Shown piece by piece: positions 39,807-41,933 of a stretch of DNA of 64,000 nucleotides (positions are counted from its first letter, which is position 1; each line of letters begins with the position of its first letter). The stretch is taken from the NCBI RefSeq assembly GCF_013122565.1, contig NZ_CP053258.1; one strand, given 5' to 3'. The notes beneath the pieces are model-generated. The model was not told the origin of the DNA. It ran no database searches and worked only from the letters and a program-made list of their open reading frames with translations. The position numbers and the translations under genes are program-made. This DNA is from Escherichia coli. Lineage in GTDB: Bacteria; Pseudomonadota; Gammaproteobacteria; Enterobacterales; Enterobacteriaceae.

Positions 39807-41933
39807 TTAGTCCTCGTTTACAACCTTTTGCTGGGCGGCTTTTTTGGCCTGAACGCGGGCAATAGCCGCGGCAACTGCCGCTTTGCGCGGATCAACCTGT
39901 TCTTCTGGTTCTGCGTTAGTCTGTTGCTGTTCCAGCTTGCGCGCTTTGGCACGGGCAATAGCCGCTTCGACGGCAGCTTTGCGCGGATCAACCTGTTCTT
40001 CTGGCTCCGCATTGGCCTGTTGCTGTTCCAGCTTGCGTGCTTTGGCGCGGGCAATAGCGGCTTCGACGGCGGCTTTGCGCGGATCGACCTGTTGTTCTGG
40101 CTCGGCATTAGCCTGTTGCTGTTCCAGCTTGCGTGCTTTGGCACGGGCAATAGCGGCTTCGACGGCGGCTTTGCGCGGATCGACCTGTTCTTCTGGTTCC
40201 GCATTAGCCTGTTGCTGTTCCAGCTTGCGCGCTTTGGCGCGGGCGATAGCTGCTTCAACGGCAGTTTTACGTGGATCAGCAACGGTTGCTGCGTCGTTAG
40301 TTTGCTCCAGTTCTGCCTGTTTCGCTCTGGCTTGCGCTTTACGGGCTTCCCGTGCTGCAATAATTGCACTGTTATCCGGGCGTTCGCCCGCTTTAATCAC
40401 AATAGGCTGTGTAGCCTGGGCCTGTTTCTCTTTCACCCGCGCCAGAGCGGCAGCAATCGCATCTTTATCTTTGGCTGCAGGTTGAACGGCTGCGCTCTTA
40501 TGTCGTTCAAGGCGAGCCGCTTTTTCGCGCTCCAGACGAGCCTGGCGCGCTTCGAAACGCGCTTTGGCTTCTGCGGCGCGCTTTTCTTCCTGACGAATAG
40601 CCGCAATTTCAGCTTTTTCCTGACGGAAATATTGCACCAGGGGAATATTGCTCGGGCAAACCCACGCGCAAGCCCCACATTCAATGCAGTCGGCAATGTT
40701 ATGCGTGGTAGCTTTATCGTGTTGCTGACCTTTGCTGAACCAGTACAACTGTTGCGGCAAAAGATCCGCAGGGCAGGCGTCAGCACAGGCGCTACACCGG
40801 ATGCAGCTTTGTTCTTCCTGTGGTTCGCCAAGCTCATTGGCAGAGGGAGCCAACAGACAGTTGGTAATCTTTACGACCGGGACATCCAGCCATGGCAAGG
40901 TAAAGCCCATTAGCGGGCCGCCCATAATCACCATTTGATCGGCAGAGGGGCAGAATCCGGCGTCATTCAATAAATGACGCACTGGCGTCCCCAGCCGTGC
41001 CCAGACGTTGCCCGGGCGAGCGATTGCTTCGCCAGTCAGGGTTACGACACGCTCGGTAATTGGCTCGCCATCAATAACGGCACGTTTCACTGCATAAGCA
41101 GTGCCGACGTTTTGCATTAATACGCCGATATCGGATGAACGCCCGCCATGTGGAACCTGCTTCCCGGTCAGAATGTAGGTTAATTGTTTAGCACCGCCAG
41201 AAGGATATTTGGTTGGAATCACCCGCAGAGAAATATCGTGAGAGTCCGCCAGCACCGCGCGCAGCATGGAAATCGCCTGCGGTTTGTTATCTTCAATGCC
41301 GATAAGAATTTCGCGTGGCTGCAGAATATGCGCAAGAATGCGAATACCCTCTACGACCTGAGCCGCGCAATCCTGCATTAAACGGTCATCGGCGGTAATG
41401 TACGGCTCGCACTCAGCAGCGTTGATAATCAACGTCTCAATCTTATCTCCGCCGCCCTGCAATTTAACGCCTGTCGGGAATCCTGCACCGCCCAGCCCGG
41501 CAACACCAAACTGATGAATGCGCTCGATTAACTCTTCGCGACGGCGAGAGCGATAATCGGCCCAGCCGTCTCGTGGGATCCAGCAGTCTTCACCATCGGC
41601 ATCAATAATCACGCTTAATTCAGCTAAAGCTGAAGGATGAGCCGTAGAGTGGGGCGCAATAGCCGTAACGGTACCCGAGGTGGGCGCGTGAACAGGCAGC
41701 ATTTTGCCGCGACCACGGGTAAGCGGCTGGCCGCGCAATACTTTATCGCCGACGCTAACGCACAACTCACCTTCAGCGCCAATATGCTGTTTCAGTGGAA
41801 TAACAAAACGCTGCGCCAGGGGTACCTGGCGCAGGGGGGTACCGTTGGACTGGGTTTTCATCTCCGGTGGATGGATGCCGCCGTTGAAATCCCAGATTTT
41901 ATTTTTTCTGAATGCAGAGAATAACTTAAGCAT
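39807..41933 (-). CDS. rsxC: Rnf-type complex subunit RsxC (4Fe-4S/NADH-binding) with C-terminal 32-aa tandem repeats
   Basis: ORF track 708 aa; two CxxCxxCxxxCP ferredoxin motifs; C-terminal repeats of ...[32 protein letters not shown]; shorter than the 740 aa I recall for K-12. Confidence 0.9.
39857..40336 (-). repeat. Intragenic tandem repeat array, 5 copies of a 96-bp unit (last copy degenerate), inside rsxC
   Basis: Unit starts at 39857, 39953, 40049, 40145 and 40241 (exactly 96 bp apart), each containing GGGCAATAGC...GCTTTGCGCGGATC...CTGTTGCTGTTCCAGCTTGCG; encodes in-frame 32-aa repeats. Confidence 0.9.

Follow-up and report, generated by a model that had tools for sequence, protein, structure and literature searches.

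The 96-bp ms11 minisatellite at the 3' end of Escherichia coli rsxC and the repeated RsxC tail that it encodes

Gene context and domain layout of RsxC

The stretch of Escherichia coli DNA analysed here (hereafter the window; 64,000 nt of contig NZ_CP053258.1, NCBI RefSeq assembly GCF_013122565.1) contains rsxC on the minus strand at 39807..41933, a coding sequence of 708 amino acids (aa) plus stop codon that was recognised from its open reading frame (ORF) and from Pfam and NCBIfam matches, and the 3' end of this gene is occupied by an in-frame array of 96-bp tandem units which is the subject of this report. Within the Rsx (Rnf-type) complex, RsxC is the subunit that binds NADH, flavin mononucleotide (FMN) and 2x[4Fe-4S]. 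The translated product matched the NCBIfam equivalog NF003454 with 866 bits (cut-off 345) and TIGR01945 with 595 bits (cut-off 246), while the Pfam domains RnfC_N (PF13375), Complex1_51K (PF01512, Nuo51-type FMN), SLBB (PF10531) and a 2x4Fe-4S Fer4 domain were all above their cut-offs and all ended by approximately aa 432. ORFs for RsxD, RsxG and RsxE lie directly downstream in the window, colinear E. coli records have the order rsxA-B-C-D-G-E-nth, and an rsxC annotation is present in 5424 E. coli genomes; the window gene is a member of the rnf operon and carries the RnfC domain set.

The catalytic part of the protein, aa 1–435 (40629..41933, minus strand), holds the Pfam domains and is the sole part with relatives among solved structures. 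The RnfC chains in the PDB (A. vinelandii 8ahx_C, C. tetanomorphum 7zc6_C, 9eri_C) share a homologous catalytic core with it (E-values 4e-121 to 3e-83) and align at most to RsxC aa 15–498, and these chains (435–496 aa) are without a repeated tail, unlike the window RsxC, in which aa 499–708 have no counterpart in any solved structure by PDB search. The catalytic part is followed by a non-repeated C-terminal tail, aa 436–552 (40278..40628, minus strand), which is rich in Ala, Lys, Arg, Glu and Gln and was predicted by AlphaFold2 (AF2) to be helical, with helices at tail residues 2–72 and 86–114, and then by the array itself. The complete 273-aa tail matched no Pfam family at E<=10, and a search of the PDB with the repeat region (the last 175 aa) gave nothing beyond weak matches of low complexity to Vang-like proteins (E 0.017). 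The segment upstream of the array (aa 431–552) was also considered as a run of older, degenerate units; its composition is similar to theirs, its best local score to a unit had p~0.09 against shuffled sequences, and such units are not claimed.

Structure of the 96-bp array

Tandem Repeats Finder (TRF) was run on the array region and then on the whole window, and reported an array, assigned to neither strand, at 39856..40278 with a period of 96, 4.4 copies, 90% matches, 0% indels and a score of 643. This was the only array of such scale within the 64 kb, the other two rows of the whole-window scan being a tRNA-Val pair and a weak 24-bp repeat. A first-pass annotation of the sequence had proposed a 96-bp in-frame variable-number tandem repeat (VNTR) inside rsxC encoding 32-residue repeats near the RsxC C-terminus, and both the periodicity and the coding frame were confirmed here. 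Alignment of the units in the rsxC frame (all on the minus strand) gave unit 1 at aa 553–584 (40182..40277), unit 2 at aa 585–616 (40086..40181), unit 3 at aa 617–648 (39990..40085) and unit 4 at aa 649–680 (39894..39989), the DNA of unit 2 being identical to K-12 unit 3 (0 mismatches; shared unit type B). These four 32-aa units are followed by a diverged, truncated terminal unit of 28 aa, aa 681–708, which ends the protein (39807..39893, with codons 39893–39810 and then the stop codon), and the rsxD start codon, at 39806, comes directly after the rsxC stop. The unit peptides start with DPRK[T/A] and end with [A/T]NAEPE[E/Q]QV.

The first-pass annotation had set the units in another phase and described a degenerate fifth unit at 40241–40336. 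This interval comprises 37 nt of unit 1 and upstream sequence that is not significantly repeat-like, and the real degenerate copy lies at the opposite end of the array, that is, at the 3' end of the gene.

Identity with the typing locus ms11

The array is the known E. coli/Shigella minisatellite ms11, so that its presence here is ordinary. The published ms11 primers (sequences from PMC11773471 and PMC8215070) each had one exact match in the window, with none expected by chance: the forward primer GAAACAGGCCCAGGCTACAC at 40409..40428 on the minus strand, and the reverse primer CTGGCGCTGGTTATGGGTAT at 39759..39778 on the plus strand, inside rsxD. The two sites bracket the array, with a predicted amplicon of 670 bp. 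The primer table of an E. coli multiple-locus VNTR analysis (MLVA) scheme lists 'ms11 (rsxC)' (PMC11773471), and ms11 has been described with a 96-bp unit, alleles of 4.5–7 and a Simpson index of 0.68 (PMC8215070). With the same exact primer sites, unit length, rsxC assignment and whole-unit allele steps, and with a copy-number polymorphism that was examined here in E. coli genomes, the window locus differs from ms11 in nothing substantive. On the TRF count, we infer that the window (4.4 copies) belongs to the '4.5' class of the published alleles and that K-12 belongs to the '5.5' class. According to PMC8215070, the panel originated with Gorgé et al. (2008, J Clin Microbiol 46:1026) and was developed on Shigella and E. 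coli, and PMC11773471 and PMC12175529 attribute to Camelena et al. (2019) the reuse of ms11 as ECMLV2 in a universal E. coli MLVA.

Copy number in K-12 and across E. coli

The rsxC gene of the K-12 derivative TG1 is annotated with 2223 nt (740 aa), and protein alignment of the window RsxC with that of K-12 showed the window protein to be shorter by exactly one 32-aa unit and 99% identical otherwise, in agreement with the first-pass annotation, which had given a K-12 length of 740 rather than 708 aa. The MG1655 array span agreed with the K-12 740-aa class (690 as against 594 in the window). These spans were obtained with a query that joined the unique sequences on either side and left out the array, so that the span of the joined match gives the array length, and the same query was used to tally alleles in two evenly spaced samples from the BLAST ranking (59 complete E. 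coli genomes each; some genomes were in both samples and no Shigella was included). Five full units, the K-12 class, was the commonest state (76/118 genomes), followed by four full units, the class of the window (16/118 genomes, ~14%), six full units (12/118; O157:H7, O55:H7 and LF82), seven full units (12/118; ST131-type) and three full units (2/118), and the copy number is thus strain-variable as had been predicted.

Three, four, five, six and seven full units correspond to RsxC proteins of ~676, 708, 740, 772 and 806 aa. In all seven of the alleles fetched the annotated gene was intact and in frame, with 676 aa in strain Z22-6 (three units), 708 aa in the window and in CT02, 740 aa in K-12, 772 aa in O157:H7 Sakai, 775 aa in strain 2A and 806 aa in E302. 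Some units of the E302 and 2A alleles, which come from the genomes of lowest flank identity to the window (about 97.7–97.8%), are 99 bp (33 aa) long because an additional Gln codon extends QQQ to QQQQ. A length change of one trinucleotide is here nested in the minisatellite, and array lengths lying 3, 6 or 9 nt off multiples of 96 are explained by these 99-bp units. Two further sampled genomes had an array length 1 nt off, probably through assembly errors.

The closest of 5426 complete RefSeq E. coli genomes showed 98.9% identity over 24 kb (window 28000–52000), and the differences of the window from those genomes were evenly spread with a natural pattern of pN/pS (the proportions of non-synonymous and synonymous differences). 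A 44-mer specific to the window had no match in the GTDB representative genomes. No database record was found for the exact RsxC protein of the window, and its exact RsxD protein was found in one Sequence Read Archive (SRA) assembly only, SRR11451224.

Divergence among units and selection on the peptide

Units of one and the same allele had 1–12 nt differences, identical adjacent units occurred in none of the seven alleles examined, and adjacent units shared exact tracts of 21–46 bp. Strains share unit types, which are combined in their alleles as mosaics, the window having types A-B-C-D-E, and because of this mosaic structure the unit that is 'missing' relative to K-12 cannot be assigned: naming it proved impossible, with window units 3 and 4 differing by 5–10 nt from every K-12 unit. 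Array length mostly followed lineage (all sampled seven-unit genomes in the group with 97.8–98.0% flank identity shared an 888-nt span). The divergence of the units and the lineage-following alleles indicate that copy number changes on a lineage timescale and not in the manner of a hypermutable contingency locus, and the array dynamics look slow. The strain-variable copy number named in the first-pass annotation is borne out; its term 'slippage-prone' is an inference and, given diverged units and alleles that track lineage, is probably overstated.

Between units pS was 0.27–0.35 and pN 0.02, giving a pN/pS of about 0.06–0.09 (0.048 for the helix core, 0.145 for the linker), and pS between strains in the non-repeat part of rsxC was 0.02–0.09. 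Since synonymous divergence is greater between units than between strains, the units are older than the diversification of the species, and since the unit differences are mostly synonymous, the peptide is conserved and under purifying selection. AF2, run on the single sequence, predicted for each unit a helix of ~24 residues (predicted local distance difference test, pLDDT, 80–88) and a linker of 8–9 residues (pLDDT about 60), with no fixed tertiary arrangement of the units (predicted template modelling score, pTM, 0.23). Charge is distributed in blocks, with +3 to +5 in the core and -3 in the linker. Amphipathic membrane-anchor helices were considered and rejected, the hydrophobic moment being 0.25 for the E. 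coli core and 0.19 for the consensus core, values reached by 1125/2000 and 1299/2000 shuffles, respectively.

The repeat core in RnfC proteins beyond E. coli

A HMMER scan with the 273-aa tail against 1.84 billion representative proteins gave 139 matches only. Among the 25 longest sequences retrieved, the exceptions were an E. coli RsxC with a frameshift and a single repeat protein of no relation; the others were RnfC-like, with a match that began close to residue 435, and several of them were truncated at the N-terminus. The remaining matches were fragments, and all ten full-length matches scanned with Pfam were RnfC (10/10). The RnfC tails hold tandem modules with a nearly invariant core starting D-[PD]-[KR] and with lineage-specific linkers, the core-to-core spacing ranging from 27 to 96 aa and the linker length from about 6 to 75 aa. 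Conservation extended to positions unconstrained by the extraction pattern (D 83/103, K 95/103 and Q 68/103).

A degenerate DNA pattern for AA[IV]ARAKA[KR]K, scanned in species-representative genomes, matched at least 120 loci. Nearly all of these belong to Enterobacterales, Vibrionales, Alteromonadales, Pasteurellales and Aeromonadales, and as many as 12 copies in tandem occurred among the matches listed. The RnfC catalytic core lay upstream on the same strand at 93 of the at least 120 loci; the others among the matches listed were 25 loci cut off at the array, one clear chance match and one unclear case. The conserved core in RnfC tails shows the E. coli 96-bp unit to be the form that a widespread architecture of RnfC tails takes in one lineage, and the purifying selection on the peptide, together with this recurrence across the Gammaproteobacteria, suggests that the tail is probably functional rather than junk.

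A strain-variable VNTR of 40 aa with 0–5 units has been reported in Erwinia amylovora RsxC (Sci Rep 2023, PMC10587187). It resembles the E. coli array in its gene, C-terminal position, helix core and strain-variable copy number, and differs in its 40-aa unit with an Ala/Pro-rich linker as opposed to the 32-aa unit with an acidic Gln/Glu linker in E. coli; each of the two expansions is specific to its lineage. Coding-region VNTRs in tolA (CVN004) and ftsK (CVN001) stand alongside ms11 in one MLVA scheme (PMC11773471), and tolA repeat number modulates stress tolerance (PMC3477136). These share with rsxC in-frame, strain-variable coding repeats in low-complexity regions, the proteins and the repeat sequences being different.

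In the limited literature that could be searched, no paper was found on RnfC tail repeat architecture or its function. What is added here is the unit-level pattern of selection and the recurrence of the core across RnfC proteins, the VNTR itself being already known. The repeated peptide is conserved across much of the Gammaproteobacteria and variable in copy number, yet neither Pfam nor any solved Rnf structure includes it. A more speculative proposal, which we advance as doubtful, is that the 21-residue basic Ala-rich core (D-P-[KR]...[KR]-K-A-A-Q) might constitute an undescribed RnfC-specific module in five gammaproteobacterial orders, with copy number (1 to 12 or more) and linkers expanded independently in each lineage and with the valency tuning the contact of Rnf/Rsx with a partner, be it SoxR, an acidic electron carrier or nucleic acid. 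If this were true, ms11 length polymorphism would represent functional variation and not only a typing marker.

Interpretation and alternative explanations

The reading that we consider very probable is that the array is the in-frame ms11 minisatellite at the 3' end of rsxC, present here as a four-unit allele, and that it encodes a non-catalytic tail. Each unit encodes a 32-residue module, a basic Ala-rich predicted helix of ~24 residues and then a short acidic linker (ANAEPEEQV), and together the modules form the tail that follows the NADH/FMN/Fe-S core at the C-terminus of RsxC; the window (708 aa) has the four-unit and K-12 (740 aa) the five-unit allele. Whole-unit changes in copy number may arise by unequal homologous recombination or by slipped-strand mispairing between units sharing tracts of up to 46 bp. 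As the unit length preserves the frame (96 = 3 x 32) and all cofactor-binding domains precede the array, gain or loss of units leaves the redox core untouched, and alleles of 3 to 7 units therefore coexist in the species.

Several points weigh against this reading. The allele counts rest on genomes sampled at even intervals from the BLAST ranking and include the two 1-nt length anomalies. The gain and loss of units is deduced from the comparison of arrays, in which slippage and RecA-dependent recombination are indistinguishable, and with no identical neighbours in seven alleles and alleles that largely follow lineage, the rate may be low. The low pN/pS between units could in part have been inflated by gene conversion among them, and the non-amphipathic character of the helix argues against one obvious role of the tail, that of a membrane anchor.

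Among the alternatives, it is possible, albeit unlikely, that copy number is not neutral and that the tail is multivalent, for example in the electrostatic docking of ferredoxin, flavodoxin or SoxR, with lineage-specific unit numbers tuning Rsx activity. The purifying selection on the peptide, the blocks of charge, and a core that is nearly invariant across five gammaproteobacterial orders and has expanded independently from 1 to 12 or more copies are all consistent with such tuning. However, the solved Rnf complexes work without such a tail, the E. amylovora strains mentioned above include some reported with 0 units, and a range of 3 to 7 units exists within one species with no known phenotype (none was found reported for rsxC copy number in the literature searched).

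It is far less probable that the array acts as a contingency (phase-variable) locus by which RsxC is turned on and off, or that it is hypermutable in a single clone. In favour of this, the tandem repeat is intragenic, and two laboratory evolution studies mention, without positions in the gene, an rsxC in-frame deletion (PMC7696260) and recurrent rsxC mutations (PMC9778841). Nevertheless, the unit is a multiple of three (96 nt, 32 codons), 7/7 fetched alleles were in frame, the only nested indel was the 3-nt Gln codon, the units have diverged and the alleles follow lineages, and ms11 has proved usable as a stable typing marker (PMC8215070).

Least credible is a collapsed repeat in the source assembly as the origin of the one-unit deficit. 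In its favour, such arrays break or confuse short-read assemblies (25 of the at least 120 related loci are interrupted in or close to the array), the one public contig with the exact RsxD of the window ends inside the array, and two sampled genomes have arrays 1 nt off. Against it, the four-unit class recurs among the sampled complete genomes and is annotated intact in CT02 and Combat11I9, and the window units form a distinct mosaic, not K-12 minus one unit, within an intact ORF.

Effects of the array on annotation and resequencing

The practical weight of the VNTR lies in its routine use as a typing marker and in the breaks or collapses that it causes in short-read assemblies. Many public contigs stop within or beside rnfC/rsxC repeat arrays, and as the arrays break short-read assemblies, copy numbers taken from draft genomes are unreliable. 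The VNTR also causes spurious ORF calls and frameshifted annotations, and is a likely source of the recurrent rsxC 'mutations' in resequencing. The two laboratory-evolution studies (PMC9778841, PMC7696260) list rsxC 'mutations', in one case together with tolA, another VNTR gene, and these may reflect altered repeat length or artefacts of read mapping and not adaptive point mutations.

The unit is free of stop codons in four of its six frames, which accounts for long ORFs in other frames; the three spurious ORFs listed below bear out the first-pass remark that the repeats generate them. An antisense ORF of 403 aa (39702..40913, plus strand), kept open by the stop-free repeat, had a pN/pS of 2.7 in its own frame, and a same-strand ORF of 183 aa in an alternative frame (39818..40369, minus strand) had a pN/pS of about 2. 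A second antisense ORF of 200 aa (39883..40485, plus strand) had a pN/pS of 0.12 between units, since its codons and those of rsxC share their third positions, and this low value in an overlapping frame is clearly a by-product and not evidence of coding. The antisense and alternative ORFs were therefore rejected as real genes, two of the three frames having a pN/pS of ~2–2.7 and the cross-genus conservation lying in the RnfC-frame peptide that is contiguous with the RnfC core.

One E. coli RsxC-like database protein of 736 aa (P0005) reads, after ~aa 523, an alternative stop-free frame through the whole array, and this aberrant frame is that of the window ORF at 39818–40369 (minus strand). A frameshift or sequencing error at this locus yields a near-full-length aberrant protein and not a truncation.

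Other features of the window

The 5' part of the rsxC coding sequence contains a terminator-like hairpin at 41811–41834 (minus strand) with a 10-bp stem including 8 G-C pairs, followed by CGTTTTGTT; a 'NusA-dependent rsxC terminator' was used in a 2026 preprint (PMC13192885). Elsewhere in the window, the weak tandem repeat with a 24-bp period lies at 14299–14351 (2.3 copies, TRF score 58), and the two adjacent tRNA-Val(GAC) genes lie at 2357–2433 and 2438–2514 (minus strand). An Rfam match to 'HPnc0260 antisense RNA' at 2233–2395 (plus strand) overlaps the first tRNA-Val gene and the sequence before it on the plus strand, and a full-length match to the small RNA (sRNA) STnc550 was found at 11106–11496 (plus strand).

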